In this document: positions 21,618 to 54,924 of the stretch, piece by piece
How positions within the stretch are numbered: position 1 is the stretch's first letter
How the letters are laid out: every line of letters begins with the position of its first letter
Origin: an uncultured Actinomycetes bacterium
GTDB lineage: Bacteria; Actinomycetota; UBA4738; HRBIN12
Length of the DNA: 64,000 nt
NCBI GenBank assembly: GCA_963751665.1
Contig: CAVVVF010000001.1
Location: forward strand, 18,652 to 82,651
Reading direction: 5' to 3'
The notes under the pieces: model-generated
The model's database searches: none
The model's input: the letters and a program-made list of their open reading frames with translations, nothing else
Told to the model about the DNA's origin: nothing
Translations under genes and position numbers: made by a program

Positions 21618-21659
21618 GTAGTCCCAACGGGATTTGAACCCGTGTCTCCACCTTGAGAG
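21618..21659 (-). repeat. direct repeat copy 1 of the 42-bp 3' half of tRNA-Glu (putative distal att site of island 1)
   Basis: gtagtcccaacgggatttgaacccgtgtctccaccttgagag identical to 47606-47647 and to the 3' half of the intact tRNA at 54851-54892. Confidence 0.75.
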
Positions 21660-21754
21660 TGTTCTAGGGGCCACTCTCGCTACCCGGGGCGATTCGCGAA
21701 TCTGCCTCCTGAACTGCGCATTTTGTTGCTCAGCCCTTCTCGTTGTTTCTTCCC

Positions 21755-21788
21755 GTCTCCCGGTCGTTCGCGGGACGAATGCGGGACG
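21755..21788. repeat. arm-type repeat gtctcccggtcgttcgcgggacgaatgcgggacg next to att copy 1 (second copy at 47742-47780)
   Basis: Exact 33-34 bp match between the two island left ends, embedded in about 130 bp of roughly 65% similar flanks; contains internal direct repeat gcgggacgaa. Confidence 0.6.
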
Positions 21789-22248
21789 GGAACGACCTCT
21801 TTCGGCGGAGCCCGGCGAAGCTGCCTTGGGACTCGCCAGATCGGTGGCCGTCAGGTCTTGGTGTCACGGGGGCGAGGGCCGGGTCTGCAGAAAACGCGGA
21901 AGATACCCTCCTGACCAGCAGCATCCAGCACACGAGTGCAGCTAGTGGGTGTCCCGGGCGCCGGATCGGCGTGGCCGGGGACGTTCGACCGTGTTCGGGC
22001 CAGGTTTCGGCCGGCCCTCGTCGTTGCGTGGGGTCAGGCGGCAGTCGCGACGCCTGCGCGCTTGCGGTGACGGTGCCATCTGAGGCTTGAAGTTCGCCCC
22101 GGTTCCGGGAACCGATCTCCAGAACGCGGCCCTCGGCGTGGGCGACCGGTTCCCCGCGGCGCTCACCGAAACCGATCCGCTGCTCGAACCAGACCCCCAC
22201 CGGATGGAAGAAGGCGAAGATGGGATGACTCTCCGTCACGAACGCAGC

Positions 22249-24387
22249 TCAGTAGTCCACCCCCTGGACGTAGGTCCGATCCGCGTCGTTCGCCTGTACG
22301 CTGGTCGGGCGCATCATTTCGTTGTCCTCGTGGTCGATGATGTGGCAGTGCCAGACGTAGCCGTGCCCGCCGTCGGGATCGAACGGGTATGACGCATCGG
22401 CGGGATCCGTGTTCGCCGGCAAGTTGGTCGGAGCCCAGCGAACCGCGATCCGCGTCACCTGACCCGGATACATGACTACCGTGTCCTTCCATCCCGCCTC
22501 GTTCGGCTCTGGAGGCTTGGCCGGACCCTTGAGGAACGGCACCACGTCCGGGTTGCCACCCAGCGCCCGAGCGTTCCCCGTGTAGTAGTCGAGGGGCGGC
22601 CCGAACCCGGGCCGGTAGACCCCTCCTTGGAAGGCGGCCGCGTACGTCGTGTCGTACTTCCCGACGTCGAAAGCCTGCCGGTTCATCAGCTGGAACTGCA
22701 CGAGGTGGAGGTGGATCGGGTGAGCGTCGGCGGTGAGGTTGACCACCTCCCAGACCTCGGTCTCGCCCTCTTGCGGCAGCTCCGAGTAGTAAGTGGTGAG
22801 CCCGTCGACCGTGATGGGTGTGAAGTCCGATCGATCGGTGCCCGGCAAGTCGGTGTTATTTACGAGTATCTCGAGCGGTCCACCTTCGTACGTGACGCCG
22901 CCGACCTCCGACGGCTCGCCGATGACTTCGTTCAGCGTCAGCTGACGCGTCTTCTGGACGGCCACGTCCGAGGCCAGCGTCCCCGCGGCCGGGTCGACCA
23001 GCCGCACCATCGGCGTTCGCAAAGGCGTGTGAGTGGCCGGGTCGTAGCTCGTGTCGGGACCGGTCGAGGGAACGACCCGGAACTGCATCACACGACCGGT
23101 GGTGCTCCCTTGGGGAGCCTCGCCCCCGGGGTACGGCGCCTTGGCGATGTTACGAAGGAGCAGCCTGGTCCCCGGTGCCAGTCCGGCGAAGTCGACGATC
23201 ACATCGGCGCGCTCGCCGGGCAGGATCAGCAATCGCTGGAGTGCACCCTTGGGCGCGTTCGGATCGATCTTCACGGGCCGGTCGAGGTAGCCGCCGTCGG
23301 TTCCGATCTGCCATATCGACGGCCCCATCGTCTTGGAAGCAGGGTTCGTCAAGAAGAGCTCGTACCCCCGGGCGTTGGAGCCATCGAGGAATAGGAATCG
23401 GTATCGCTTCGGCTCGACCTCCAGGTACGGCCAGACCTTGCCGTTCACCGCGATCGTGTCGCCGATGAACTCCGGGACCCAGAAAGGGTGCTCCGGGTTG
23501 GGTGTGAACGGTATCCCCGCCGGGAAGAACAGCTGGCCGTCCGTGTCGAACATGCGATCTTGGATGATCAGTGGTATCGGCAGCGGAAGGTTGGCGGGGG
23601 GCGGGTCATCCGGATCGGTGATCAGGTAGCCGCCCGCGAGGCCCGCGTAAACGCTCAGCCGCGTCACGCCCAGCGTGTGGTCGTGGAACCAGATTGGAGC
23701 CGCTTCCTGGACGTTCGGGTAGCGGTAGATGGCGTAGTTCTTGGGCGACGTGCCATCCTCGCTGTAGTAGGCGGGCCCAACGTAGCTCCCGTCGCTCGTG
23801 AACCAGGAGTCCGGTCCTCCGTCGATGCCGGCAGGCACCTCTCCGCCGTGAAGGTGTGGGGTCCCAGGGATGGGCCCTGCGTAGTGGAGAGCGCACGCGC
23901 CCGTCGGCGGGTTCCGCGGCTCAACGCTTTCCGCGCAGGCATTCGCCTCGCCGTTGAGCGGATCGGCCCAGTGCACGGTTTGGTCCGTCGAATCGACCCA
24001 CGCCTTGAGGTGCGTGTGGCTCGTGTCACCGAGATTGTTGACCCACTTGATCTCGGTCGGCGTGCCGCGCTCGGCGACGATCACCGGGCCCAGGTAGGTG
24101 GATCTGGCCGACTGGCCGGGCTGCAGGTACCCCCAGACCCAGGTCTTGGGGGATCCTTTCGGCAGCACCTGCGCCTTGAACTCGGTCATCCGCAACTCGA
24201 TCGGGCTCGCGCCCGCGAGGATGACGTCCAGGCTGGGCAGCGAGTCGACGAACTGTGGGATGGAACTGCCTGCGAGCGGAGTCTGCGCCGCAGCGACAAA
24301 CGACCTCGACCATCCGAGGCGGGGCAGAACCACCAAGCCGGCACCCGCGGCGAGGCCTCCGTTCAGGAACTGTCTCCGAGTAATCAT
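22249..24387 (-). CDS. Tat-secreted multicopper oxidase (bilirubin oxidase/CotA-like)
   Basis: Twin-arginine signal MITRRQFLNGGLAAGAGL; copper ligand motifs incl. C-terminal HCHIIDHEDNEMM; intact 712 aa. Confidence 0.8.
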   Translation of the reverse strand: MITRRQFLNGGLAAGAGLVVLPRLGWSRSFVAAAQTPLAGSSIPQFVDSLPSLDVILAGASPIELRMTEFKAQVLPKGSPKTWVWGYLQPGQSARSTYLGPVIVAERGTPTEIKWVNNLGDTSHTHLKAWVDSTDQTVHWADPLNGEANACAESVEPRNPPTGACALHYAGPIPGTPHLHGGEVPAGIDGGPDSWFTSDGSYVGPAYYSEDGTSPKNYAIYRYPNVQEAAPIWFHDHTLGVTRLSVYAGLAGGYLITDPDDPPPANLPLPIPLIIQDRMFDTDGQLFFPAGIPFTPNPEHPFWVPEFIGDTIAVNGKVWPYLEVEPKRYRFLFLDGSNARGYELFLTNPASKTMGPSIWQIGTDGGYLDRPVKIDPNAPKGALQRLLILPGERADVIVDFAGLAPGTRLLLRNIAKAPYPGGEAPQGSTTGRVMQFRVVPSTGPDTSYDPATHTPLRTPMVRLVDPAAGTLASDVAVQKTRQLTLNEVIGEPSEVGGVTYEGGPLEILVNNTDLPGTDRSDFTPITVDGLTTYYSELPQEGETEVWEVVNLTADAHPIHLHLVQFQLMNRQAFDVGKYDTTYAAAFQGGVYRPGFGPPLDYYTGNARALGGNPDVVPFLKGPAKPPEPNEAGWKDTVVMYPGQVTRIAVRWAPTNLPANTDPADASYPFDPDGGHGYVWHCHIIDHEDNEMMRPTSVQANDADRTYVQGVDY

Positions 24388-27270: not shown

Positions 27271-28194
27271 CTAGCGCCCGATCGCGGGGGGCCGCGCGGC
27301 CAGCACCGCGCGCCTCGCGGCCGCGCCGGAGGCAAAGCGCAGGAACGCCTGGGCCGGAGCCGGCAAGAACCCGTCCTCCAGGTATTGCAGGAACCATCGT
27401 CGCCGAAGCGGCGTTCCCCGCGCCCGCAGGCGTGCCAGGGTCCCGGCTGCGATCTCCAAGGCCACCGCCTGAGCCGAGATGAGGGTCACGCCGAGCCCGA
27501 CTGCAGCTGCTTGTTTCACGGCTCCATTGCTGCCCAGGTTCAGCACACGCCGGGGCTCGATCTCGTGCCGGGCAAGGAACTCCTCCGTCGTAGAGCGCGT
27601 CCCAGAGCCGGGCTCGCGAAGGAGCCATGTGTCGTTGAGCCGTCGCGGGTCGATGCCCGAGCGACCGGCTAGCGGATGGTCTGGAGCCGACACGATGACC
27701 AGGTCGTTCGCGAGGAACCCCCGGCCGTCGACGGGCCCGTCTGCCGGCGGACGTCCGCCGACGGCCAGGTCCGCCTCCCGGGCCAGCAAGCGCTCCAGAA
27801 CCAAAGCCCGGTTCCCCACCTCCAGCACCGGGTCCACCTCCGGGTACTGTTCCTGAAAGGCCTTGAGGATGGGGGGGACAACGTACTCGCCGGCGGTCGT
27901 GACCGCGGCGAGCCGCAGTCGGCCCCGGCCAGGGTGCGCGGCCGCGACGGCGGAGTCCCTACCCTGTTCCAGCAACGCCAGGCACTGCGCCGCGAAGACG
28001 GCCAGGGCCTCGCCCGAAGGGGTCGGGCGCACGCCCTGCCGGTCCCGGACCACTAATCGGACGCCCACGTCGCGCTCGAGCGCGGCCAGGCTCGCCGAGA
28101 CCGCCGGCTGCGTCACATACAGCTCGGCTGCGGCGCCAGTCACCGAGCGGTGTCGCACCACCGCGAGGAATGCACGCAACTGAGCGAGGGTCAT
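27271..28194 (-). CDS. cbbR: LysR-family transcriptional regulator, divergent from RuBisCO genes (CbbR-like)
   Basis: [43 protein letters not shown]; position divergent to cbbL is the canonical CbbR arrangement. Confidence 0.7.
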
Positions 28195-28285
28195 AAAGAA
28201 AGCTTATATGGGAACACGAAAGATTCAATTGTATCTGATCTCGCAAGGCCCTAGGGTGGAATGTGATCCAGAAGGGGAGGAACCG
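28195..28285. promoter_or_regulatory. cbbR-cbbL divergent intergenic control region (locally AT-rich, putative LysR T-N11-A boxes, RBS GAAGGGGAGGA)
   Basis: aaagaaagcttatatgggaacacgaaagattcaattgtatctgatctcgcaa is markedly AT-rich for this genome and lies between divergent regulator and operon. Confidence 0.3.
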
Positions 28286-29728
28286 ATGGCCCTCACCAAC
28301 CACACGAAGTTGTTCGACGCGGGAGTGAAGCTCTACAAGGACATGGGCTACTTCGAGCCCGGCTACGCGCCGAAGGAGACTGACGTCCTCGCGGCGTTCC
28401 GTGTCACGCCTCAGGAGGACGTCCCCCCCGAGGAGGCCGCTGCGGCCGTCGCCGCCGAGTCCTCGACCGGCACCTGGACCTCGGTCTGGACCGACCGCCT
28501 CACCGACCTGGAGCGCTACCGGGGCCGGTGCTACCGGATCGACCCGGTCCCGGGCGAGCCGAGCCAGTACATCGCCTACGTCGCCTATGACCTCGACCTG
28601 TTCGAGGAGGGTTCGATCGCGAACATGGCCTCATCGATCGTCGGGAACGTGTTCGGGTTCAAGGCCCTCCGGGCCCTCCGCCTGGAGGACCTTCGGGTAC
28701 CGATCGCCTACCTGAAGACGTTCCAGGGACCGCCCCACGGGATCCGGGTGGAGCGCGACAAACTGAATAAGTACGGCCGGCCCCTGCTTGGCTGCACGAT
28801 CAAGCCGAAGCTCGGGCTCTCCGCTCGCACCTATGGGCTCGCGGTATACGAATGCCTGCGCGGAGGTCTCGACTTCACGAAGGACGACGAGAACATCAAC
28901 TCCCAGCCGTTCATGCGCTGGCGGGACCGGTACGAGTTCGTCATGGAGGCGGTTCGCAAAGCCGAGGACGAGACCGGGGAGCGCAAGGGCCACTACCTGA
29001 ACGTCACCGCCCCAGGATTCGAAGAGATGATCGAGAGGGCCGAGCTCGCGAAGGAGCTCGGCGCGCCGATCATCATGGTCGATTACCTCACCGTCGGGTT
29101 CACCGCGTTCACGTCGCTGTCGCGGTGGTGCCGACGGAACGGGGTGCTGCTGCATTGCCACCGTGCCATGCATGCGGTAATCGACCGCCAGCGCAACCAC
29201 GGCATCCACTGGCGGGTGCTCGCGAAGTGGTGCAGGATGATCGGGGCAGATCACCTGCACAACGGGACCGTCGTCGGGAAGCTCGAGGGCGACCGGGCCG
29301 CGACGATGGCCATCAACGACCTCTTGCGGGAAGACTTCGTCGCGCGGGATCGGTCGCGCGGGATCTACTTCGACCAGCCCTGGGCGTCGTTGCCGGGCCT
29401 GTTCCCGGTGGCTTCGGGCGGGATCCACGTCGGTCACATGCCGGACCTCGTTGCCATCTTCGGCGACGACGCAGTGTTCCAGTTCGGGGGTGGGACGCTT
29501 GGCCACCCTTGGGGCAGCGCAGCCGGAGCCACCGCGAATCGGGTCGCGCTCGAGGCCGTGATCCAGGCCCGAAACGAAGGCCGGGAGATCGCTGCGGAGG
29601 GCGCGGACGTCCTACGGAAGGCGGCGGCGCACTCTCCCGAGCTGCGCGCGGCCCTCGAGACGTGGCAGGATGTCACCTTCGAGTTCGATGCGGTCGACGC
29701 CCTCGACCAAGCACAGGTGACGTCGTGA
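28286..29728 (+). CDS. cbbL: ribulose-1,5-bisphosphate carboxylase/oxygenase large subunit, form I
   Basis: Signature [42 protein letters not shown], followed by small subunit gene. Confidence 0.9.
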
Positions 29729-30042
29729 CGACGAGCACTCGCCGCCTGGAAACCTTCTCCTACCTGCCGCCTCTCACCGACGAGCAGATCACCGCGCAGA
29801 CCGGCTCGATCCTGGAGCGCGGGTTGATCCCCGCGATCGAGCACACGACCGACCCTGGACCGCGAAACACCTACTGGAGCCTGTGGAAGCTCCCGCTGTT
29901 CGACGCGCGAACGCCGGAGGCGGTTCTGGCCGAGGTCGAGGCCTGCGCGCGAGCCAACCCCGACGCATACGTCCGGCTGAGTGGCTACGACCCGAAGCGC
30001 CAGGGGCAGGTCGCGAGCTTCCTGCTCCGCCGCCCCAGTTGA
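29725..30042 (+). CDS. cbbS: RuBisCO small subunit
   Basis: [14 protein letters not shown]...[11 protein letters not shown]; GTG start overlaps cbbL stop. Confidence 0.85.
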
Positions 30043-30353
30043 GAGCCCACAGGGCGTTCTAGGTTCGGAACGCTGGATCGCTGGCGAGTCCGGGCCCAGG
30101 CTTTCCCCATCGTGCTCCCGCAGCTCGCTGGGAACCTTCCCTCCCTGGGGGGAGGCCGGTCTCCCCCTCCCTCCCCCCACTCCGGGTGATAACGGGCGCG
30201 GGGACCTCGCCTACGGTAATGATCGAGCAGCGGCTATGGATCTCCCTCGGGGAGGCTCGGGCTTCCGAACGAACCACCCGACACCCACGCGACGACGTGT
30301 GGGGACGATCCATGGCGACAGCATGCGGGACAGAGAGAAGAGGTGAGGCGGCC

Positions 30354-31268
30354 GTGAGACCGGTCATGCTGGCGATCGTCGGAGACAGCGCCGCCGGCAA
30401 GACGACCTTCACTCAAGGGGTCGTGGGGCTGCTCGGGGAGGGGCGCGTCGCCGTGATGTGTACCGACGACTATCACCGCTACGATCGTGTCCAGCGCCGC
30501 GAGCTGAACATCACACCCCTCGACCCTGACGGCAACTACATGGACATCATGGCCCAGCATCTTCGGTTGCTCGCCGCCGGGGAGCCGATCTTGAAGCCCG
30601 TCTACGACCACAGCCATGGCAACTTCGCGCCTCCCGAGTACGTGGTCGCCCGGCAGTTCATGGTCGTTGAAGGCCTTCTCGGCCTGACGACCAAGCCCAT
30701 GCGTGACTGCTACGCGGTGAGGGTCTACCTCGATCCGCCCGAGGACATGCGGCATCGGTGGAAGATCCAGCGCGACTGCGCGAAGCGCGGCTACACCCCA
30801 GATCAGGTGCTCGAGGAGCTGGAAAGGCGCGAGCCGGACTCGGCCGTCTTCATCCGGCCCCAGCGCGGGAGCGCGGACATCGTCGTGCGCTTCGAGCCTC
30901 CGAACGGCTTCGTCGACAGCGCGCGCCTGTCGATGCGCATGGTGTTGCGCCCGACGATCTCTCATCGAGATCTCACCGAACTCGCCGAGAAGGCCGTTTC
31001 GGACGGATGCGAGTCGATCCGGCTGGAGCTCGGGCGCGACGAGGGACACCCGGCCGACCTCCTCTACGTATCCGCGGACATCTCCGCCGAGGAGACCGCG
31101 CACCTGGAATCGCTGCTCTGGGAGCGCATGGATTTCGATCATCATCTCGAGCGCGAGGATATCGGCACCTTCGTCGAGGGCAACCGCCGCCGCCACTCGG
31201 ACTGCCTCGCTATCGCGCAGCTGTTCATCACCTACCACCTCCTGAACGCCGCGGCAGGCGGGCAGTGA
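30354..31268 (+). CDS. prk: phosphoribulokinase
   Basis: P-loop IVGDSAAGKTT and PRK-specific DDYHRYDR motif. Confidence 0.8.
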   Translation: MRPVMLAIVGDSAAGKTTFTQGVVGLLGEGRVAVMCTDDYHRYDRVQRRELNITPLDPDGNYMDIMAQHLRLLAAGEPILKPVYDHSHGNFAPPEYVVARQFMVVEGLLGLTTKPMRDCYAVRVYLDPPEDMRHRWKIQRDCAKRGYTPDQVLEELERREPDSAVFIRPQRGSADIVVRFEPPNGFVDSARLSMRMVLRPTISHRDLTELAEKAVSDGCESIRLELGRDEGHPADLLYVSADISAEETAHLESLLWERMDFDHHLEREDIGTFVEGNRRRHSDCLAIAQLFITYHLLNAAAGGQ

Positions 31269-31293
31269 TGGCCCGGGTGCGGGTGGCTGCTCG

Positions 31294-32688: not shown

Positions 32689-33356
32689 AGGTGGGAGACC
32701 TCGCCACAGCCCCGGTCGTTTCCGTCCGCCCGGAGCAGTCCGTGCGCCAAGCCGCGCGAGTGATGATGGAACACGGAACCGGCTCGACGGTCGTCCTCGA
32801 TGGGGGAGCGCTGGTCGGGATCCTGACCGAGCGAGATCTCCTGCGGGCCGCTGCGACGGGAACGGATCTGGACGGGACGAGGGTCGAGCAGTTCATGTCC
32901 CCGCACGTGAAGACGATCGGTCCCGACTGGGAGGTCTACGAGGCAACGGCGGAGATGGCGGCCCAGCACATCCGCCACCTGGTCGTATGTGAGAACGCGC
33001 AGGTGGTCGGCGTCTTGTCGGTACGGGACGTGCTCCTGGCGGGCCAGCGAGTGGAGCTCACGGCCGGGAGCTGGGCCGTGCTGCGGGACCCGTTGACCTT
33101 GACCATCAGGGAACGCCGACGCCTCCAGCGGTGCCTACTCATGCTCCGCGGGACCGACCCCGCCGAGTTCGAGCTCGCGGGCTTGATCGGCCTCCTGGTG
33201 GGGAGCTGGTCGTTTGAGGTGGCCCTTCCGGCAGAGTCCGAGAGCCTACGGTCGATACCCGCCGCAGACTATGAGTTGCTCAGGGCGGCGGTGTTGGCCG
33301 AGCTCCCCGACCTTCAGCGCTCCGTGCACCCCTCACCCGGGTGGCGGCGGAGGTAA
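32685..33356 (+). CDS. CBS domain pair protein
   Basis: Two CBS-like units (…VVLDGGALVGILTERDLL… / …HLVVCENAQVVGVLSVRDVL…); overlaps upstream stop. Confidence 0.65.
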   Translation: MKVGDLATAPVVSVRPEQSVRQAARVMMEHGTGSTVVLDGGALVGILTERDLLRAAATGTDLDGTRVEQFMSPHVKTIGPDWEVYEATAEMAAQHIRHLVVCENAQVVGVLSVRDVLLAGQRVELTAGSWAVLRDPLTLTIRERRRLQRCLLMLRGTDPAEFELAGLIGLLVGSWSFEVALPAESESLRSIPAADYELLRAAVLAELPDLQRSVHPSPGWRRR

Positions 33357-36163: not shown

Positions 36164-36165
36164 GG

Positions 36166-43496: not shown

Positions 43497-44308
43497 CCCT
43501 GATTCCTAGTCCGCCGGCGAAAGCCGGGCAAATCCGACCTGCGCGGGACTCACCCGCCGACGCGGGCGAGACATTCTCAGGTCGCGAGGGCATGATCCCA
43601 ATAGTTTGCCCAGTCTCTGAGGGGCTTGCGATAATGCTTGAGCATTGACGGGCCTGCGTCTCCGGGTGCACGTGCTGTCTCCCGTCGGAGACTGTTGCCT
43701 CCGCGCCGAAGGAGCACGCATGAGGCGGTGCCTTCTGCTCGAACACTTCGAGCCCAGGACGGGGAGATTCGAGGGTCGGGGCACGCGAGACTGTGGCCGG
43801 AGGAGCGAGCGCGGATAGGAGCGGGGCCGCTCAATCCCGCGAGCGAAGCCTCGCCTGGCCTTCCAGGACCACAACTCAGCGTTGGGAGGTCGTCGGCTCG
43901 GCGCGTTCGCCCGGCCCTCTCCATGCGCCGCAGTTGCACTCGCTGTAGAGGCAACGACGGAAGCCGTCGTCGCTGTGAATGAATTCGGAGTGCGCGCAGC
44001 CGGCGCAGAAGACGCGACGCGAATCAACGGCGTGCCGGAAGATCGAATCCGCATCGGCCGGAAATCTCATGCCTCGCCCTCGAAACCGGGTTCCTGCCTT
44101 CACTGTAGGGATATCGGGCGAATCTCGACATCGGCCAAAAGTCCGCATTTCGGTTTCCTATTCGCCACCGTTTGCAGGCCCGCCGCGACGTCATGCCGTC
44201 AGCCCAGGAGGTCCCTGTGTTGTACCAGTCTCCGTTCGCGGTTCTAGAGTTCTTCGAAGAGGTCACGGACCTCCTCGGACGAGCAGACGCAGGGAAGGAG
44301 CAGGGGAC

Positions 44309-45367
44309 ATGAGATTCGGAATCAAGACCGTCGCGCTGGTCACGATCCTGACTCTGCATGCCATCACTCCGGTCCAGGCTATGCCGAACCTCACCGGGTA
44401 CCCGAATTCGATGGCCGCGACCGGGGATTCCATCACCCGCGCCTACAACACGGGCACGTTGCCGTTCTCCGACGCCGCCGGCAACTCCTGGTCGACAGGC
44501 ACGCGGGCCTCCGTGGAGAGCCACTACACCCGGATCCTTGTTGCCCAACCCGCCATCCTCGGCCGGAACTACAACCATGCGGTGACGGGGGCGAAGATGG
44601 CCGGACTTGAGTCGCAGATGCAACAGGTCAACGACCAGGCCGTGGCGTACGTGACGATCCTGATGGGCGCGAACGACCTATGCACACGAGGGGTCGCTGA
44701 GATGACGTCGGTGGCCGACTTCCGTTCCCAGTTCGAACGTGCCATGGCTACGCTCTCCGCCGGCTCCCCCCGAGCTCGCATCTATGTCGTGAGCATCCCA
44801 GACGTCTTCCAGCTGTGGGTCATCTTGAAGGACAATCTCCTGGCTCGTTTGGCCTGGCGGACCTTGGACATATGCCAGTCGCTGCTGCAGCACCCGCGCT
44901 CCACCGATGCCTCCGACGTGATGCGGCGACTGACCGTGCGGCAGCGCAATATCGACTTCAACGTCCAGCTGGCGGAGGTGTGCGCGATGTACATCCACTG
45001 CCGCCTCGATCAGAACGCCATCTTCTCCGACCCATTCCAGCCCGAGGACGTCTCGAGGCGCGACTACTTCCATCCCTCGCTCCAGGGCCAACAGCGCCTG
45101 GCCCAGGTGGCGTGGAGCGCGACCTTCGACTTTTCGGACCAGATACCTCCTTTGACCACGGCGAGCACGGCGGTGGTCGAGGGCGGCATCTTGGTCTCGC
45201 TGGAGGCCACCGATGACGTCGGCGTGGCCGGCATCGAGTACCGGCTCAACCTCGGGGCCTTTCAGCGCTATGTAGGCCCGTTCGTTCTAACCACAGGCAG
45301 CAACATCCGCTTCCGAGCGGTAGACGTGAACGGCAACATCGAGACCACACAGTCGCTCGCCGCGTGA
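44309..45367 (+). CDS. secreted SGNH/GDSL hydrolase with C-terminal chitobiase/hexosaminidase-C-like (CHB_HEX_C) domain
   Basis: GGAAGGAG RBS; signal peptide; GDSIT block, GANDLC block, DYFHPS (catalytic D-x-x-H); C-terminal GIEYRLNLGAF...IRFRAVDVNGNIET. Confidence 0.65.
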   Translation: MRFGIKTVALVTILTLHAITPVQAMPNLTGYPNSMAATGDSITRAYNTGTLPFSDAAGNSWSTGTRASVESHYTRILVAQPAILGRNYNHAVTGAKMAGLESQMQQVNDQAVAYVTILMGANDLCTRGVAEMTSVADFRSQFERAMATLSAGSPRARIYVVSIPDVFQLWVILKDNLLARLAWRTLDICQSLLQHPRSTDASDVMRRLTVRQRNIDFNVQLAEVCAMYIHCRLDQNAIFSDPFQPEDVSRRDYFHPSLQGQQRLAQVAWSATFDFSDQIPPLTTASTAVVEGGILVSLEATDDVGVAGIEYRLNLGAFQRYVGPFVLTTGSNIRFRAVDVNGNIETTQSLAA

Positions 45368-45589
45368 AAGCGACATCGATCAAGGACTTCCTTCTTCCGT
45401 GTGTGCAGTGCTGCTCGGGCACGGGGGGCTGGCGTCGACAGGACGAGGCGTGCCACCGAATCGAACGAGAGTCGGGCGCCGCCGAAGGCAACAGGGAAGA
45501 TCCATCTCAGCCAGGCGGCGGGCGCGCAGGGGTGGATCGGCGCGGCCAGCTCGTTTGCTAGATGCCGAGGGTGGCGAACCGAAGACCAA

Positions 45590-46046
45590 GCGCTCCCGCC
45601 GCTGGGTGACCGTGCCGGAATTCGTCTCCGCTTCTTTGGCCGAGCACGTCCGGAAGTACCCGCCGGGTCCCGACGGACTCGTGTTCACCGCACCGAAGGG
45701 AGGGCCGATCCGGCGCCCCGCCTTCTACAGGCTCGTCTGGTCCAAGGCAACACGAGCGGCTGGCCTCGAAGGCTTCCCGTTTCGCAACCTGCGGCACACG
45801 GGAGCAACATTGGCGCTTCAGGAGGGCACGAGTCCCGTCCTGGTGGCCTTTCGTTTAGGACATGCATCGACAGCCATGATCGAGCGACACTACGGCGAAC
45901 TCGTTGAGGGCTTCGACCGGGAGATCGCCGATCGCCTCGCGGAAGCCCGGAGAAGAGAGCGCCGAAGTCCTGACCTTGCCCCTGTGTCGTCCCTGGCCGC
46001 CGCCCGGCGGTCTCGCAGGAGGAATCCTCGCAAGAGGACTCGCTGA
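45590..46046 (+). pseudogene. C-terminal catalytic-domain fragment of a tyrosine recombinase/phage-type integrase
   Basis: LRHTGATLALQEG ... LGHASTAMIERHYGEL (H-x-x-R, second H, catalytic Y) without N-terminal SAM-like/core-binding domains. Confidence 0.55.
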
Positions 46047-46096: not shown

Positions 46097-47130
46097 TCAC
46101 TCCGGAGCGGGTCGGATCCAGTCCGGGAAGAGGCCGCCGCGCGGCATCCCCTGGATGTCGAGCGAGGCGCGACCCGTGCCGTCGGGCCGGATGACGTAGA
46201 GGTCGTAGCCGGACACGAGCAGGTACCTCCCGTCCGGGGACCAGGTCACGAACTGGCCGAACTCCGGCGTGACGCGTGTGAGCCCGGTCCCATCCGCGTT
46301 CACGACCCAGATGTCGTGGTGGGGCCCGATGTCGCCCGTGGTCCGGCAATCGGGCGCGTCCGAGTAGGCGCAGTCGTCGCGGACCGACGCGAACGCGATG
46401 CGCGTGCCGTCCGGCGACCAGGCCGGCCACCCGTCCGGGCCTGGTGAGTCCGTGAGCTGCACCGGGTTCGACCCGTCGGCGTTCATGACCCAGATGTCGT
46501 ACTCGGCCGGCCCGTCGGGGCCGCCCATGAACGCGATGCGCGTGCCGTCGGGCGACCAGGCGGGGTACTCGACCCACATGTCCGTGGGGATCCTGCGCAG
46601 TTTCGATCCGTCCGGGTTCACGAGGTACCCGCTCATCGTCGAGCCGTGGCGGGTCGAGTTGAACACGATCGTGCGGCCGTCCGGCGACCAGTCCGGTCCC
46701 TAGTCGTTGTCGGGATCGTTCGTGATGTCCCTGCGTTCCGAGCCGTCGGCGTTCATCACGTAGATCTCGTCGTCGTGGTTGATGCCGCGGCGCGAGTCCC
46801 GGTACACGATCCGACTCCCGTCGGGCGACCAGGACGGGTCGAACTCGGCGCCGCGCCTGCTCGTCACTTGCACCAGGCCGGTGCCGTCGACGTTCGCCGT
46901 GTAAACGTCGTCCTCGGTGGACAGGACGATCCTGCCTCGGAGCGTGCTCCTGTCGATCGGCGTCCCAAGGATCACGGGCACCCTCGAGTCGACCGGCGAC
47001 GCCTGCAGGCTGGGCGCGGCCGTCGAGGATGAGGATGCGGAACGGTTCGTCGGAGCCTGCGTGCACGACGCGGGGAGGACGACGAGGACAAGGATCCAGG
47101 CCGATCCGGCTCGACGAGCGCGCGGACTCA
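46097..47130 (-). pseudogene. TolB-like PD40 beta-propeller lipoprotein, one frameshift near 46690
   Basis: Lipobox-like LVLVVLPASC; repeated WSPDGSRIVY / WSPDGTRIAF / DIWVMNADGS PD40 units split over two frames. Confidence 0.5.
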
Positions 47131-47605
47131 CGACGGCCTCCTCGCTGGTCGGGGGCATCGAAGATACGCCGATGAGGCCCCCGAGGTTCCGCCCCGCGTG
47201 CGCGAGCTCCACGCCCAGCGCGGCGACCGAGTCCTTCCCCGCGATGAGTTTGCCGGGTTCCGGCAGTCTGGATCGGGCAGAGGAGTGGCACCGGCATGGC
47301 TCGTGCCCGGACACCCCAGCACCTTGTCGACGGAGGGCACGCCCTCGGCCGGCAGACCTTGCTCGCGGCCGACGGAGACCTCCGTCGGGCGGTGTCGTAG
47401 TCGGACTCGAGCTGGGGGCGGCCCTGTGATCCGGATCTGCGCGGCGCAAGGGTGGCGAGTGCATCCACCCTCGACACCCGCACTACTTTCGCGCACTCGC
47501 TACGCTTGATCCGGCGCGGGATATTTGCGGGATATCCGGCGTTTGATCTTGGTTCAACCAGCCGATCGATTCAGGACTAGCGCCCTGACCTGGCGCTTTG
47601 CTCTA

Positions 47606-47647
47606 GTAGTCCCAACGGGATTTGAACCCGTGTCTCCACCTTGAGAG
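47606..47647 (-). repeat. direct repeat copy 2 of the 42-bp tRNA-Glu 3' half (att site between island 1 and island 2)
   Basis: Identical 42-mer; following about 6 bp (tgttct) also identical to copy 1 but not to the tRNA. Confidence 0.75.
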
Positions 47648-47741
47648 TGTTCTCGGGGGACGATTCCGCTACCTGCGGCGATGCCCGAATCCAGTACCTG
47701 ACCCGCGGATTCGATGCTCCAGCCGTTCCCGTCATTTCTTG

Positions 47742-47780
47742 ACGTCTCCCGGTCGTTCGCGGGACGAATGCGGGACGAAC
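47742..47780. repeat. second copy of arm-type repeat (see 21755-21788)
   Basis: cgtctcccggtcgttcgcgggacgaatgcgggacgaacg. Confidence 0.6.
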
Positions 47781-47870
47781 GCGAGATTGGCCAGTGTTGG
47801 ATCGACGGCTCCGGGGGTCCTATCGACCGATCGAGAGCGTTGCACCGTAGCCACATCGATCCTGTTTGGG

Positions 47871-50800
47871 CTACCACGCGGAAGCGCAAGATATGAGCCA
47901 AGCACTCCTGCTCTGTGCGCACCGATCCACGTGAAGGTACTGGCGGCATTCCTCGTCGGTGAGCGATCTCGTGACCTCCCGGGGCGATCTCGAGGAGGTC
48001 GTCGATGTCGAGGGCCCAGATCCGAACACCATCGCACGCGCTCGTGGAGGCGAGCTTCGTACCGTCCGGGCTGAAGGCCACGCTCTGGATACGGCGCATC
48101 CGATGCCCCCGCAGGACCAGCTGCTGCGCGCCGGTGTCCGCCTCGAACAGCCGAACCGTGCCGTCGAGCCCGCGGTGGCGACGCGCGATCCGTCGGGGCT
48201 GAAGGCGACATCGTTGACGCCCCCGAGTTCCCGGCGAGCACCGCCAAGCGCGTTCCGCTCTCCACGTCCCAGATCTCCGCGTGTCCGGCCTGACCGGCCG
48301 TGGCGATACGGGAACCGCTGGGATCGAAGTCCATGCGACGCGTCGCGCTGATCGTGCGGACGATCACGCCCCGCTCCCAGTCCCAGATCTTCAAGCGGTA
48401 TCGGCCTTCGGCGATGCGGGCCGCCGTGGCGACCAGGCGGCCGTCGGGGCTGAACGTGCCGCGAACAGAGACGACCCCTCGTCTGCGCAGGACCCGGATC
48501 ACGCGGCCGGAGCGATCGACGATCTTCGCCTCCCGTCCCAGCTCGCGGTGACCAGATACTCCCCATCCGGACTGAATGCGACCTCGTTGACGTCGAGGCG
48601 GTGCCCGATCTGGAAGAGCTCCTCCCCGGTCGACAAATCCCATACCCTCACCGCTACGTCGCCGCCGCAGCACTCGGGCCGCTCCAGCCGCCGAGCGGCG
48701 ATCGACGCGCCGTCCGGGCTGACGTCGAATGAACCGAAGAACCCAGAAGAAAGTCGAAGTGGCAGGGGTCCGATCGTTCGAAGGACCCGCCCCGTCTGCA
48801 GGTCCCAGATCGGCACCGCATGGTCCGTCCACGCTGGTCGCCACGACGCGCCGTCCGTCCGGCATGAACTCCGCGGGATGCGCCGGCGGCGGGAAGGTTC
48901 GCCCACTCGGCGTCGCCGTTCGGCCCCAGGTCCCAGATCTTCACGGCGGTGATCCCCGCGTCACCGGCCATCACCCGGGTCCCATCGGGCGAGAACGCCA
49001 CTCCCACGATCCCGCTCCTCGTCTCTTGTGCCGACAGCGACCAGAGCTCCCGGACACCTCCGTCCCGATCCCCACACCTTCGCGGTGCCGTCGATACCGC
49101 CCGTGACCAGGCGAGAGGAATCCGGACTCCAGGCGGCGCTCAGGACGAACCCGCTGTGGCCGAAGGTGAGCCGGAGCCTTCCCGTCCCCGCATCCCAGAC
49201 TCCCGTGCCGTCCTCGCTCTCGCGGCGATGTATCGGCCATCCGGGCTCCAGGACACGCCCCCGTGAAGCACGACGACGCTGCAACAATTGGGTTCCGCTC
49301 AGTTGAACGCTTCCTCGCCGGTCCTCGACGATCGAACACGGCGCCGTCTTCGCCACGAGAGGACGACCACGGCGAGGCGCTTCCCGTCAGGACTGAGGGC
49401 GGTGTCGATCGGGCCGTCGCAAGCAAGAGTCCAGACCACCCGGCCCGTGGACAGGTCCAGGACCCGGACGACGCCCCCGAAGTCGTCGTGCCAGGCAGCG
49501 GCGACGAGCGAACCGTCGGCGCTGAACGAAGGGCCGAAGCACCGCGCCCTCCCCCGACAGCGCTCGCAGAGGAGTCGCCGGTCGAGGGATCCCACACCTT
49601 CAACGTCCCGTCGTCGCCGGTGGAGGCGAGCATGGAGCCGTCCGGAGCTGAACGCGACGTCGTTGACATCGCCATCGTGTCCCTCGGAACGAGAGGACGC
49701 TCTCCCCCGTCTCGCCGTCCCTGATGTCGATGATCCCCGAGTCCTCGCCCCTCGGTCACGAAGACGCCCGTCGGGCTCCAGGCGAGGAGCCCGCCCACCC
49801 CGGGCACCTCCATCACGAGCCGGGATGCCACGACGGCCCGGTGCAGCGCCTCCTCGGCCTCCGGCAGCACGGATCCGTCGACCGATCGGGTGAGCTCGAC
49901 GGCCTCGATCGCGAGCAGGACGCTGAGCTCGGGGTCGGCCTCGAGGTTCGCGACCGCGGCGGCGGCAAGCTCCCTCGCCGTCGCGACCCTCGCCTCGCGC
50001 CCGCTCGCTCGCTCTGGTTGGTCGCGACGATGGTGAGCGATCCGGCGACCAGAGCCGCGACCGCGAAGACGGCAACGAGGCCGCGCAGCCGGCGTGCGGA
50101 TCGCCGCTCGATCCGCGCCTCGTGCTCGCGCCGCCGCTCCTCCTCCTCCCGCTCCCGGTCGCGCTGATCGACGCTCGCCTTCAGGTACGCGCGCTCGGGC
50201 CGCCCGATCGCGAGGTCCGTGGTCGCGGCCCAGGCCTCGAGCTGCTCGAGTCGGGCACCCCGCAGGAGGAAGCTCGGATCGCCGTCGGAGCCCCGCCACT
50301 CGGCGGCCGCCTGGGCCAGCCCCCGTTCCTGACGGAGGTCCTCGCGCGCGTCGTCGATCCAGGTGCGCAGCCGCCCCCACGCGCCGAGCAGCGCCTCGTG
50401 GGCGATCTCGACCGTCGGCTCCCGGGTGGAGGGCTCCCGATCGAAGGTCAGGAGCCGGTGGCGTCCGAAGGTGTCCAGGACGCGTCGATCGCTTCCGGTT
50501 CCACGTCGATGTCGTCCAGCTCGCTCCTCGCGACGCGCCGCCGCGTGTCCTGCCTGCCCTCCCCGAGGGTGACCAACCGCAGGAACACCTGCTTGATCGC
50601 CCGTCGCCCCTGCGGTCGGTCGCCTCGTAGATGCGCTCGGCTCGCGCGGACAGGGCCCCGGCGACCCCGCCGATCTCCCGGTAGGCGGCGAGGGTCAGCC
50701 GATCCTCGTCCCGCCGTTCGAAGAGCTCCGTGAGCGCGTACTGCAGGAGCGGGAGCGCGCCGGGCTGATGGGCGACGTCGGCGATCATCTCCGCCACCAG

Positions 50801-53595
50801 CCCGGGCTCGGGCCGGACGCCGACCCGTTCGGCCGGGCCTCGGATCGCCTGCTCGAGCTCGTCGGGCATGAGCGGGGGAACCGCCTCGGTCCGTTCGGCG
50901 AGCAGCTCGCCGAACCGGGGGTAGAGGAGCGGGCGGTCGTAGAAGTCGGCCCGGAGCGTCACGATCACCGGAGCCGGCTCTCGGGGTCGGCGGTCGCGAC
51001 GCGAAGCGACTCCAGGAACAGCTCGCGCTCGCGTTCGTCGGTGGTGAGCGTGAAGACCTCCTCGAACTGGTCGACAACGAGCACGACCTCCGACTCGCCG
51101 GCCGCGACGAGATCCACGGCCTCGAGCAGCCCCCGGGATCCTGAATCGAGCAGGTCGTGCAGCCGGGGCACCGGACGCACCGCGATCCGAAGCAGCGCCG
51201 CCTCGAGCTCCTCGATGGGGTGCGACCCGGGGAACATCTCGGCGATGAAGGCGATCCTCCGGCCTCCCCAGGGCCCCGTCCCGGATCGCCGGGACCAGGC
51301 CCGCGCGGACCACCGAGGACTTCCGCCCCCGCTCGGGCCGACGACGGCGAGGAACCTCGACCCGGGCCCGCGCCTCCTCAGCCTGGCGACGAGGCGCTGG
51401 GTGAGCTCCCCCCGCCCGAAGAAGTCGCGGGCGTCGGCCTCGGTGAACGGCCGGAGGCCCTTGTACGGGTTCCGTTCGTCGGTCCGTCGGGGGCGGCGAT
51501 CGCGTAGGTTCGAGGGCCGTGCGGGCGGCCACGGCGAACGCGTCCGCCTCCGGGTGCATCCGTCCCGACTCGACCCGCTCGACGAGCTCCGCGAAGGACG
51601 GCTTCGTCCGGCAGCAGGCCCGTGGCGAGCCGGCGAGCTCCCGGACGTCCTCCGGGGGTCCGGCGCCGCGCCGACCCCGATCTGGAAGTCCCCGAGGTAG
51701 GCGTTCCCCTCGGCGTCGAACAAGACGTTGGACGATCCATGCTCCCGTGCGCCATCCCCTGCCGGTGCGCGAACGCGAGCGCGGAGGAGATCTGCTCGAC
51801 GAGGCGGATGGCTCGGTCCCGCTGGAGCGACTCCCCGCGCTCCTCGAGGGCCCGCAGGCTGCCCCCGCGCAGGTACCGGGAGACGATGTAGGCGCGGCCG
51901 GGCTCTCGCCAGTAGTCGTAGATCGGGACGATGTGCGGATGCTCCAGGGCCGCGACGGCCTGGGCCTCCGCCTCGAAACGCCCCACGAAGGCCGGGTCGG
52001 TGGCGACGTGCTCGTGGAACACCTTGACGGCCACGTCGCGCTCGACGTGGGGTTGGATGGCCCGGAAGACGGCGCCGTCGGCCCGTCGTCGATCTTCTCC
52101 AGGAGCCGGTAGCCGCGGAGGGGCTCTCCCCGCAGATCGAGTCCGGGGTCTTGCTTCAGGACCCGCTCGTGGAGCCTCACGAGCTCGGGCGAGGGGTCGA
52201 TCCCGAGCTCGTCGGCCAGGATCTCCCTCGCCCGCTGGTAGGCGCCCAGCGCCTCGGCCTGACGCCCCTCGCGGTAGAGGGCCAGCATCGAGCAGGCCCC
52301 ACAGGCTCTCCCGCCAGGGGTGGCGCGCGAGCAGGGTCTCCAGCTCCCCGATCGCCCGGGCCTGGGCACCGCTCGCCAGGAGCCCCTCGATCCTGGCTTC
52401 CTGCGCCTCGAGCCGAAGCTCGTCGAGCCGGGCGGCCTCGGCGACCAGCGAGGGCTGGTCGGCGAGGTCGGCGAGCGCCGGGCCGCGCCACAGCGCCAAG
52501 GCATCCTCGAGCGTGGCGACCGCGATGTTCGGATCGACGGGGAGGGCCTTCTTCGCGTCCCTCATGAGCGCGTCGAACCGTGCCGCGTCCAACTCGGAGG
52601 GGTCGAGCCAGGCGGTAGCCGGGTGCGTGGCTCTGGATCCGGTCGTGGCCGAGGGCCTTCCGGAGGTGCGAGACGTAGGTCTGGATGATGTTCCGGGCTT
52701 TCTCGGGCGGTTCTTCGCCCCAGACCTCGTCGATCAGCGTCTCGGCGGGCACGAGCTCGTTCGCGCGGATGAGCAGGTGGGCGAGGACCGCGCGCTGCTT
52801 CGGCCCGCCGAGGGGGATCGGCCCGCTCCCCGCGTCGACCTCGAGCGGTCCGAGGACGCGGAACTGCAGCCTCCCCCCGTACACGCGCCGCGCCGGCTGC
52901 CTGGGCAGGAGCGCTCGCATCTGCTCGGCGACGTCGCTCCCCTCCGAAGCGATCGCCAGGACGTGGACGGGATCGGAGAGCCCCTTGAGATGCAGCTCCC
53001 CGCGATCGACGTAGGTGATGCCATCGAGCGCGCGAGCGAGGTGAACGACGCTCTGACTGCACAGGATCTCGCCGGGGCCGGCCTGCCCGCACAACCGCGC
53101 CGCGAGGTTCAGGGCCCCACCCCGGTATCCGCCCTCGACCTGAACCGCCTCGCCCGCATCCAGCCCGATCCCCACGGGGAGCGGGAGATCCGGAGTCGCC
53201 AGCGTCTCCTGCAGGAGGCGCGCCTGCAGCTCGACCGCCGTCCTGATCGCCTGACGGGGCGAACCAAAGACGGCGAGGGCCTCATCACCCCGCAGCTCGA
53301 TCACCGAGCCGTCACGAGCCTCTACCTGCTCGCGAACGATGTCGGCGAACCGAGCTGCGAGCTTGGCAGCCGCTTCGTCACCGCGCTCATGGGTGAAGTG
53401 GGTGTATCCGCGAACGTCCGCGATCAGGAACGTCCTGACCTCCTCGGTGCCGGCAGGCGGCGTGTTTCGGCTTTCCTCTCGGACATCGATGGGGCCCGAT
53501 CCCTGGGGAGCGTGCTCCATCCCCCTCATGCGGCCGAGTATCGAGCCTTGGATTCTCGAGCGCCAGGCCGCCGTCTCGTCCTGTGTGTCGCTCAC
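47871..53595 (-). pseudogene. giant multidomain signalling gene: class III adenylate cyclase - SARP (OmpR-type winged helix + BTAD) - protein-kinase-like segment - NB-ARC/AAA - WD40 repeats; many frameshifts
   Basis: Cyclase core (FLIADVRGYTHFTH...GDEALAVFGSP...GIGLDAGEAV) and SARP DNA-binding (LQFRVLGPLEVD...PKQRAVLAHLLIRANELVPAETLIDEVWGE) in 52177-53595 ORF; BTAD + kinase-like (VAVKVF...HPHIVPIYDYW...YIVSRYLRGGSL) in 51378-52592; Walker/NB-ARC-like LAVVGPSGGGS in 50965-51723; at least 12 WD40 units (VAFSPDG..., ...WD...) scattered over five minus-strand frames between 47871 and 50075; C-terminal LTDEECRQYLHVD. Confidence 0.6.
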
Positions 53596-53720
53596 GCTCT
53601 CTCGAGCATCGGGTGAGTCCCTTGAGAACGGCTTGAAAGAGGCGTCCAGCCGTTCTCAGGGCTCCTCCGCCAACCTCGAGCGTGGTCCTCATAGGAGCGA
53701 CCAGAGGAAGGGAGGAAGGT

Positions 53721-54482
53721 ATGACACACACCGATCGAACCGGCAGCGGTGCGGAACGCTCGAGCAGCGCGATGCGATGGCCTGCGGCCTCGCTCCTGCT
53801 CGCCTTCGCGCTGATGGCGGGGGCGTGCGGAGGCGCAACGCAAGAGGGTCCCGAGGCGACGGGTGGATCTAACGCGCCATCGAGTTCGACCACGACCCCT
53901 GCGCACCTCCCGAGCGGCGGCGCGTTGGAGCCCGGGACGTATGTCGTCACCGCGATCGATCCCGACTTTGATGCGGCGCACCGGATCACGATCAGCGTTC
54001 CAGAGGGCTACCAGGCCCTCTTCGGATGGGGCATCCTGAAGAACGAGGGGCGCCAATGGGTGAGCGCTTCGGTCGTTGGCAACGTCTACGCCGATGCGTG
54101 CCAGTGGGAAGGCACGCTCCTCGACCCACCGGTGGGCTCGAACTTCGATGCTCTCGTCGCCGCGCTTGCAAATCAGCTCGGGCCTCGCACGTCGACGCCG
54201 ACGGACGTCACGCTGGCTGGGTTCGCCGGGAAGCGGATGGTGTTGTTGGTGCCCGCCAGCATCAACGTGCGCCTCTGCGACAACGGCCAGTTCCGATTCT
54301 GGCTCGACACCGGCGGGGGAGAGCGGTACTCGCCGTTTTCCGGTGAGCGCGACCGGCTGTGGATCTTGGATGTCGACGGCGTTCCGCTCGTGATCGAGGC
54401 AGCGTGGCCAGCCGGGGCATCGGCGCAGGTTCAAGCCGAGCTTGTCCAGATGGTGGAGTCGGTCCGCATCGACCCTTCGTAA
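53721..54482 (+). CDS. hypothetical secreted lipoprotein
   Basis: GGGAGGAAGG RBS; lipobox LLLAFALMAGAC after N-terminal extension; no recognisable domain. Confidence 0.5.
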   Translation: MTHTDRTGSGAERSSSAMRWPAASLLLAFALMAGACGGATQEGPEATGGSNAPSSSTTTPAHLPSGGALEPGTYVVTAIDPDFDAAHRITISVPEGYQALFGWGILKNEGRQWVSASVVGNVYADACQWEGTLLDPPVGSNFDALVAALANQLGPRTSTPTDVTLAGFAGKRMVLLVPASINVRLCDNGQFRFWLDTGGGERYSPFSGERDRLWILDVDGVPLVIEAAWPAGASAQVQAELVQMVESVRIDPS

Positions 54483-54848
54483 CAGGCCAACGAAGGAGTG
54501 CGCCGAGAAAGCCCGGTCCCGCCCTGAGGGACCGGGCTTCTCGGCCTGAACCGATCTCGACGCAGCACTCCCGCGCCGTCACCCGGCGGCATTGGATCGC
54601 GTTCGAACTCGCGGTCCAGACCGCAGGGTCTATCGGTGGCGCATGCGCCTCAGGTGTCTTACCGGATTGCGAGGTCCAGGGGTGATCTGCCCGTGACGCC
54701 TCGCGGTCGGCTGCGGGGACAGATGCGGGACGAGAAGAGGGGCGGCCCAGCCTGTTCAGCGCGCTTGATCGGCGCTTCGGTGCGACTGAAAGGCCGTGTC
54801 TGCACCTTGACCAGGGTGGAGACGGGAACTCCGACGATGCGTTTCCCC

Positions 54849-54924
54849 TGGTAGTCCCAACGGGATTTGAACCCGTGTCTCCACCTTGAGAGGGTGGTGT
54901 CCTCGGCCACTAGACGATGGGACC
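54849..54924 (-). tRNA. tRNA-Glu, anticodon CUC, 3' CCA encoded
   Basis: Reverse complement GGTCCCATCGTCTAGTGGCCGAGGACACCACCCTCTCAAGGTGGAGACACGGGTTCAAATCCCGTTGGGACTACCA folds as cloverleaf (7-bp acceptor with G1-U72, 5-bp anticodon stem CCACC/GGTGG, loop CUCUCAA, T-arm ACGGG-TTCAAAT-CCCGT); same length and architecture as canonical bacterial tRNA-Glu. Confidence 0.8.

Follow-up and report, generated by a model that had tools for sequence, protein, structure and literature searches.

Organisation of the tRNA-Glu(CUC) locus

We analysed a 64,000-nucleotide (nt) stretch of DNA from an uncultured Actinomycetes bacterium, hereafter called the window, in which about 40 kb of DNA beside a tRNA-Glu(CUC) gene appear to be a stack of decayed integrated elements, one of them carrying a Calvin-cycle operon. 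The putative elements are designated E0 (14.9-21.6 kb), E1 (21.66-47.6 kb) and E2 (47.65-54.85 kb), and the features of the locus are collected in Table 1. Genes were called by third-position G+C and scanned against Pfam; related contigs and proteins are cited by L and P numbers.

The tRNA-Glu(CUC) gene on the minus strand is the single tRNA gene in the window (ARAGORN; Rfam, 65.4 bits). As shown in Table 1, a 42-mer is present in three exact copies (direct repeats DR1, DR2 and DR3), all on the plus strand, and read along the tRNA strand it begins with the first base of the anticodon loop and ends with the first C of the encoded CCA. Exact searching and tRNA calling bore out the initial annotation, made from the sequence alone, which had described three copies in the same orientation with the third inside an intact tRNA-Glu; the intervals that it had given between the repeats (21660-47605 and 47648-54850) were accurate. 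No further match was found in the window when up to 3 mismatches were allowed, and the expected number of matches, from 100 dinucleotide-preserving shuffles, was 0. The extent of 42 bp is the classical identity block of integrases that cross over in the anticodon loop. Past the core, DR1 and DR2 can be aligned for a further 130 nt or so to the right with approximately 75% identity (172 nt at 81% overall), while DR3 runs into the 5' half of the tRNA. Therefore, the copies are not simple duplications.

Table 1. Features of the tRNA-Glu(CUC) locus, in window coordinates (O, core; P and P', attachment-site arms)
Position	Strand	Feature	Evidence or remark
14055-14864	+	Sugar ABC transporter permease, last gene of the chromosomal left flank	100% identical to P0121
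14890-14989	+	Decayed left attachment remnant of E0	P' arm (~14897-14989) kept; 42-bp core lost or unrecognisable
15048-18590	+	E0 zinc-ribbon / class III nucleotide cyclase / AAA_16 STAND / TPR protein	Pfam; PADLOC, PycC-like cyclase domain
18587-21532	+	E0 protein with TLC-like membrane domain, HEAT repeats and C-terminal cyclic nucleotide monophosphate (cNMP)-binding domain	Pfam
21589-21617	+	Short P-arm-like remnant (29 nt), directly left of DR1	Matches P-arm-proximal sequence of L028
21618-21659	+	DR1, displaced tRNA-Glu 3' part (core O), left end of E1	Exact match
21660-21790	+	P1' arm of E1, tandem repeat GCGGGACGAATGCGGGACGG (~21770-21789)	75% identical to P2' arm
22249-24387	-	Multicopper oxidase exported by twin-arginine translocation (TAT)	Pfam; near-identical in L036-L039
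25001-27228	+	GAF histidine kinase and LuxR-type response regulator	Pfam
27271-38523	cbbR minus	Calvin-cycle cluster: cbbR, cbbL, cbbS, prk, NuoF-like, CBS, rpe, tkt, AAA+ ATPase, class I fructose-bisphosphate aldolase	Pfam
38560-39800	-	Frameshifted insertion sequence (IS) transposase	HTH_32/HTH_21 (Pfam); rve-type integrase-core motifs in other frame
39953-45367	mixed	GH114, bactofilin, S-adenosylmethionine (SAM) methyltransferase, GDSL lipase	Pfam
45573-45986	+	5'-truncated tyrosine integrase pseudogene	Reads towards DR2
46100-47158	-	PD40 beta-propeller gene, in-frame stop at 46700-46702	Pfam
47459-47605	+	P1 arm of E1, tandem repeat GCGGGATATTTGCGGGATAT (47516-47535)	Conserved with L028 and L022
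47606-47647	+	DR2, core O between E1 and E2	Exact match; with flanks (47459-47781) a complete P-O-P' module
47648-47781	+	P2' arm of E2, repeat GCGGGACGAATGCGGGACGA (47759-47778)	Alignment
47910-53595	-	Giant cyclase / winged-helix / BTAD / nSTAND / WD40 regulator, pseudogenised	Partial Pfam domains in three overlapping open reading frames (ORFs)
53682-54482	+	Lipoprotein-like ORF	Followed by strong hairpin, 54500-54545
54630-54757	+	P'-arm-like segment, GCGGGGACAGATGCGGGACGA (54713-54733)	Score 55 against P2' arm; shuffles 24.3 +/- 3.5, maximum 43
54849-54924	-	Intact tRNA-Glu(CUC)	DR3 (54851-54892) spans anticodon loop to 3' end

Attachment-site modules

The displaced core copies are embedded in longer conserved modules. 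The layout is a P arm, the 42-bp core and a P' arm, and it is complete at DR2; the arms, of approximately 130-150 nt, carry tandem GCGGGAY repeats, which are putative arm-type integrase binding sites. DR2 with its flanks (47459-47781) was 80% identical over 324 nt to L028 9618-9939, and weaker matches to this arm-core-arm module were detected in L022 and L023. Arm-core-arm alignments to the P1-arm region gave 80% identity for L028 and 70% for L022 over about 320 nt. On the left side of E1, window 21589-21788 matched L028 9734-9935 with 84% identity over a 203-nt alignment that included the P1' arm. The core copies of DR1 and DR2 are still perfect, although the adjoining arms of E1 and E2 differ by approximately 25%. 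When the exact core plus P' junction pattern was searched for in viral contigs, 0 matches were found.

Close to the tRNA, the arrangement of the P'-arm-like segment 54630-54757 recurs in L022 10672-10857. This segment may be the tRNA-adjacent arm of E2, or else a relic of a further element. A decayed core was sought to the left of it, and the candidate (~54565-54608) was rejected, since it does not resemble the core.

A sequence like the tRNA's own anticodon arm (CCGTGTCTGCACCTTGACCAGGGTGGAGACGG) lies at 54794-54826, some 25 nt downstream of the tRNA 3' end, and is kept in L022 (~10812-10840). Its folding energy as a hairpin is ordinary (z = 0.68), and no structure is claimed for it.

Left boundary of the array and element E0

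In L030-L034, synteny with the left flank of the window (90-98% nucleotide identity) extends up to 14889 and stops there. The sequence immediately beyond, 14890-14989, gave a local alignment score of 89 against DR1 plus the P1' arm, and shuffles scored against the DR2 region gave 24.4 +/- 3.5 (maximum 38); a blastn match of the same sequence to the DR2 arm had an E-value of 2.6e-4. Because this fourth arm remnant bounds the cyclase-TLC gene pair on the left, the pair lies inside an older element, E0, and the array extends beyond the two repeat-bounded intervals.

The initial annotation had proposed that the ancestral junction joined the cyclase-TLC pair to tRNA-Glu. This was wrong: the pair sits in E0, and in L034 it is the permease gene that is linked to tRNA-Glu(CUC), across 2.57 kb of unrelated DNA as against 40 kb in the window. 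L034, one of the relatives retrieved through the permease, matches the window with 90-95% identity as far as 14889 and with approximately 90-92% identity from 54850 onward, synteny resuming at the tRNA-Glu(CUC) gene. Neither a cyclase nor a TLC gene lies between its permease and its tRNA-Glu, and its core is present as a single copy, inside the tRNA-Glu(CUC). Since even the 2.57-kb DNA of L034 ends in a P-arm-like repeat adjoining the tRNA, the permease-tRNA locus is evidently an old hotspot.

Relatives of the TLC protein (44-88% amino acid (aa) identity; GTDB genomes and JGI metagenomes) never had a tRNA-Glu downstream within the available sequence of at most 10 kb. The closest relative of the TLC gene (L012, 87% nucleotide identity) loses homology to the window about 10 nt past the TLC stop codon, and no tRNA or core copy was found in that contig. 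The TLC protein was the wrong probe for an empty site, because the TLC gene is itself cargo.

A further variant of the left junction appears to be present in a 1.5-kb contig (L033), which has 98% identity to the permease flank. Approximately 100 nt past the permease stop (L033 1352-1400), the initial 24 nt of the core are present with one mismatch, and the sequence after them is unrelated; no tRNA was called in this contig by ARAGORN.

The integrase family

Integrase sequence is confined to the pseudogene in E1. It corresponds to residues 204-341 of the 359-aa integrase P0006 (88% identity) and covers only positions 67-165 of the 172 of the Pfam PF00589 profile; no integrase sequence was found upstream of it in any frame by tblastn. 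Since the N-terminal DNA-binding part (203 residues) and the first catalytic box are missing, this integrase cannot be active. When seven integrases of the family were compared with the window by tblastn, only 45570-45986 matched, and no other recombinase was found by Pfam in all called ORFs and in six-frame translations of the gaps between them.

A database search with the fragment retrieved full-length relatives of 360-375 aa, plus many truncated ones, and several of them lie beside the attachment-site sequences described above. In L023, the start of a 370-aa integrase lies 110 nt away from a 42-mer copy that has one mismatch, and the flanks of this copy resemble both sides of DR2. In L028/L029, a near full-length integrase (87% identical to P0006 over residues 17-341) is encoded 3.7 kb upstream of the 324-nt module shared with the window; no terminal overlap indicating circularity was found in L028. 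In L022, the same truncated integrase as in the window is followed by the same module. In L025/L026, an intact 363-aa integrase of the family, oriented like the window fragment, has its end 16 nt away from the tRNA-Glu(CUC) 3' end. Synteny of L025 with the window resumes at this tRNA, beyond which the two are 82-83% identical at the nucleotide level (window right flank, 55522-63984). Therefore, L025 represents the same chromosomal locus, holding a different, intact element; no second core copy for this element was found within 10 kb.

The intact relatives carry an excisionase-like helix-turn-helix gene and a primase-helicase gene, and L027, a tRNA-Gly variant, also carries terminase pieces. 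On account of these genes, the integrase family looks phage-related rather than actinomycete-conjugative. Actinomycete integrative and conjugative elements (AICEs) combine integrase/excisionase functions with genes for replication and for FtsK/SpoIIIE-type transfer. Pfam detected no FtsK/SpoIIIE-like, Rep or Nudix domain in the window ORFs; in place of AICE genes, the intact relatives L025 and L027 carry primase-helicase and terminase-like genes. The array does not qualify as a prophage either, as no virion structural or packaging gene was found in the window by Pfam. Intact excisionase, replication and conjugation genes were likewise not found there.

These observations bear on an explanation that needs no integrase, in which the tRNA-containing region underwent segmental duplication or homologous recombination. 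Such an event would agree with the lack of a working integrase in the window and with a base composition similar to that of the flanks. However, the repeated sequence comprises only 42 bp and an arm and breaks off exactly in the anticodon loop, the arms are conserved beside integrases in other genomes, and an integrase remnant is present; we regard this explanation as highly improbable.

Integrase remnants in three contexts start near the same residue of the 359-aa protein, namely residue 204 in the window (45573), 200 in L022 (2580) and 186 in L041 (6134). In L028 (6263-7427) and L029, genes for a ThsB-like TIR protein, an 8xMP protein and a DUF7701 protein lie between the integrase and the attachment module; they are probably anti-phage cargo, in the slot that the PD40 gene occupies in the window.

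Variation of the locus among relatives

In the comparison with related genomes that the initial annotation had suggested, breakpoints were found at the repeat copies, in addition to the 2.57-kb locus of L034. L030-L032 are 95-98.4% identical to the window in the left flank and diverge at 14889. They continue into a different first element of 3.7 kb, and then into a core with P' arm (85% identical to 47605-47778) and a homologue of E2 (E2') at 86% identity, their homology to the window resuming at 47605. E0 and E1 are absent from the locus in L030-L032. Four contigs from different samples (L036-L039) match the window leftward from 34388 at 98.5% identity, with homology ending exactly at 21618, where DR1 begins. 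Past 21618, other genes follow in L036 and L037, and the contigs L038 and L039 break off within the core; of 9 E1 proteins, only 2 are identical in L037. All boundaries of the array (14889, 21618, 47605/6 and 54850) are synteny breakpoints in one close relative or another, and the location of the breakpoints at core copies supports site-specific modularity.

The same variation raises the possibility that the array, or a part of it such as E1 plus E2, was acquired or rearranged as a ready-made composite, formed by accretion elsewhere and by recombination between core copies, with no three separate insertions in this lineage. Elements do reassort at core copies, as E1 has another left neighbour in L036/L037 and E2' stands behind another element in L030-L032, and the transfer of composites of cis-mobilizable elements (CIMEs) and integrative and conjugative elements (ICEs) has been documented in other bacteria (PMC5704250). 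Against this, E2 is only 86% identical to E2' though the flanks of the contigs are 95-98% identical, and the P' arms of E1 and E2 share only about 75% identity. Therefore, the members have separate histories, and we consider acquisition of a composite unlikely.

Origin and decay of the array

We think it likely that 14890-54850 (40 kb) is an array of at least three elements, E0, E1 and E2, that was built by integrase-mediated accretion and then decayed; a small further remnant may adjoin the tRNA. Under this model, successive site-specific recombination events would have inserted the elements into the 3' part of tRNA-Glu(CUC), catalysed by tyrosine integrases of a single family (~360-375 aa) whose genes reside on phage-like elements. 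Every element would have, at its attachment site, 42-45 bp that copy the tRNA between the anticodon loop and the 3' end, and integration would therefore rebuild the tRNA and leave a displaced copy at the far end. After insertion, deletion and mutation would have removed the integration functions, giving rise to CIME-like E1 and E2 and to the more decayed E0. The Calvin-cycle operon would have been brought by E1 or acquired by it later. We infer both the order of the insertion events and any present-day mobility; E1 and E2 could move only if a related integrase were supplied from elsewhere.

Integrase-mediated insertion into a tRNA gene, as put forward in the initial annotation, is supported by the arms beside intact integrases, the integrase fragment of E1, the L025 element and the synteny breaks. 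Its description of two tandem elements was right as to accretion but not as to number, since there are at least three members, with E0 the older, and they are relics rather than active elements. Decay is seen throughout: the integrase is truncated, the IS transposase is frameshifted, the PD40 gene has acquired a stop, the giant STAND gene is pseudogenised and the outer core of E0 is lost. Because none of the elements has a functional integrase, they are relics and not active. E1 and E2 have kept attL and attR and lack functional integration and transfer genes, which is what defines a CIME; E0 falls outside this definition because its outer core is gone. Derivation by deletion from an autonomous element is indicated in E1 by the integrase remnant, and no remnant of an integration gene was found in E0 or E2.

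Several observations weigh against an array formed in this way. No functional integrase is encoded anywhere in the window. The arm to the left of DR3 does not resemble the P arm of E1; the tRNA-proximal end of E2 would thus have been remodelled or would derive from another variant. Parts of the array also occur alone elsewhere, namely the integrase fragment with the PD40 gene (L041, 97.7%), the multicopper oxidase (L040, 90% at the nucleotide level, in an unrelated context) and the cyclase-TLC pair (L012); therefore, ordinary recombination has also reshuffled the contents. The window has about 68% G+C, with values of 0.66-0.70 throughout, and tetranucleotide usage does not separate the array from its flanks (correlations of 0.79-0.94 for all segments). 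G+C at third codon positions was lower in the array genes (0.80-0.83) than in the syntenic core (0.88-0.93), and this was the only respect in which the compositional contrast envisaged in the initial annotation appeared; there was no clear separation. Finally, the order E0-E1-E2 was seen in no independent contig.

This last point raises the question of a chimeric metagenome assembly, in which unrelated core-bearing loci would have been joined at an identical repeat of 42-53 nt and the tandem order would be an artefact. The window neighbours on the two sides of DR1 or of DR2 are linked in no independent contig, contigs L038 and L039 end within the core repeat, and close relatives show other neighbours across the same repeat copies. 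On the other hand, an identity of 42-53 nt is shorter than common assembly k-mers and reads, the same arm-core-arm architecture is present in L022, L023 and L028, and L034 bears out the outer boundaries at the permease gene and the tRNA. In a chimeric order, too, every element would still be bounded by attachment sites. A chimera thus seems to us quite unlikely, and accretion followed by decay remains our preferred account.

Cargo of the elements

The Calvin-cycle cluster of E1 has, up to 34388, the same gene order as in L036-L039, at 98.5% nucleotide identity. No disruption was seen in the Calvin-cycle part of E1, the first 12.8 kb of which is nearly identical in the four other contigs, and the cbbR-cbbLS-prk-rpe-tkt-fba operon is apparently intact. 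In comparisons with the PDB, RbcL gave 874 bits to 7qsw, about 808 bits to cyanobacterial enzymes and 656 bits to 1bxn. By these scores, RbcL is nearer to the green-type than to the red-type solved structures. The AAA+ gene after tkt was considered as a candidate cbbX and rejected, as it matches CDC48/FtsH-type models and no CbbX model of NCBIfam; for this reason, the RuBisCO is not called red-type. In E1, an intact 353-aa homologue from L041 aligns across the in-frame stop of the PD40 gene at 97%.

Two oddities were seen in the operon. The tkt and AAA+ ATPase genes share one open frame with no stop between them (33676-37440), and the transketolase is 686 aa long in the gene calls of the 98.5%-identical JGI contigs; the single frame may reflect loss of a stop codon or a fusion in the window. 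Moreover, a gene for a NuoF-like flavoprotein (TIGR01959, below cut-off) and a tandem-CBS gene are placed between prk and rpe (31294-33356), which is an unusual insertion.

In E0, the cyclase gene and the TLC/HEAT/cNMP gene (15048-21532) overlap by 4 nt, and a cyclase-domain gene lies directly upstream of the TLC homologue in 14 of the 21 relative loci (L001-L021), i.e., in most of those extending upstream. Such a combination, in which a cyclase is encoded beside a membrane protein that binds cNMPs, follows the logic of Pycsar anti-phage systems. By PADLOC, the cyclase matched PycC at 83 bits, and the TLC partner matches the cNMP-binding part of Pycsar effectors; both proteins are far larger than known Pycsar components.

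In E2, alignment of the giant regulator gene with its uninterrupted homologue in L030 requires at least 7 alternating frames. The lipoprotein-like ORF had no match in Pfam, NCBIfam or PADLOC. Beyond the tRNA, the right flank (55500-58500) contains two tandem paralogous phosphoesterase (PF04185) genes, whose repeat blocks are approximately 80% identical and spaced 1.48 kb apart. The ORF calls cover only the C-terminal halves of these genes, which are 450-500 aa long in relatives.

Relation to known systems and implications

Arrays built by tandem accretion at a tRNA gene are already known, and such accretion is a well-known route of genome growth. Accretion together with CIMEs has been described for the ICESt1-related elements of Streptococcus thermophilus (Pavlovic 2004 and Bellanger 2011, as cited in PMC5704250), and tandem accretion also for Streptomyces pathogenicity islands (Zhang & Loria 2017, as cited in PMC5704250). 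As in CIME arrays, the elements of the window stand head-to-tail at one target gene with direct copies of the target 3' end between them, the older members lack integration genes while attL and attR are kept, and close strains differ in the members present. Unlike the ICESt1-type arrays, this array is in an uncultured soil actinobacterium, its target is tRNA-Glu(CUC) and its intact relatives look phage-like and not conjugative. In addition, E0 has no outer core.

Among the 3919 islands of Islander, anticodon-centred attachment is the commoner of two attP types (2083 of 3919), and tandem arrays number 125 with at least 2 members and 4 with at least 3 (PMC4383910). The array shares with Islander islands the anticodon-centred attachment and an intact tRNA at one end with displaced direct 3' fragments, which holds for E1 (DR1/DR2) and E2 (DR2/DR3), and it shows presence/absence polymorphism with breakpoints at the repeat copies (L034, L030-L032 and L036-L039). 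By contrast, Islander demands an integrase gene for each member, and no member of the array has an intact one of its own. For this reason, the array would be missed by Islander-like pipelines.

Genes of the cbb type have been found on the Tn4371-family island CMGI-3 of Cupriavidus metallidurans CH34 (PMC2864759). E1 resembles CMGI-3 in that a full cbb cluster, with an adjacent IS element, is the cargo of an integrated element. CMGI-3 is a 97-kb conjugative-type island of a betaproteobacterium, with its cbb cassette bounded by IS1071, whereas E1 is a 26-kb integrase-less element at a tRNA gene in Actinomycetota; its RuBisCO, with its closer match to green-type structures, is a further difference.

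The cargo alone is moderately interesting, and the main value of the locus lies in a precisely mapped, polymorphic array that carries a Calvin-cycle operon. The map shows, at base level, how accessory DNA amounting to 40 kb was gathered at a tRNA gene, and how the stack varies between strains with 98% identity in their flanks. It also shows that reading exact repeats alone gives a wrong 'ancestral' junction and that integrase-dependent island finders would miss such arrays. The arm-core-arm module and the intact integrases (P0006, L028 and L025) define a testable candidate for a tRNA-Glu(CUC)-specific integrase/att pair.

A complete CO2-fixation operon within an element bounded by attachment sites suggests one route by which autotrophy genes may spread among soil Actinomycetota. 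An elevated horizontal transfer of type IE RuBisCO has been reported in Antarctic soil bacteria, with rbcL in six phyla and no vehicle named (PMC13554262). We tentatively suggest, as a possibility that is less probable than not, that E1 is a still-mobilisable 26-kb 'autotrophy island', in which a complete Calvin-cycle operon and its regulator, flanked by intact attachment sites, would be moved between sites or genomes of soil Actinomycetota by integrases of the family acting in trans; an indirect hint at such mobility is that E1 is found at 98.5% identity beside a different neighbour in other metagenomes. If this is true, E1 would provide a concrete carrier for the unusually frequent horizontal RuBisCO transfer that has been reported for soil Actinomycetota (PMC13554262).

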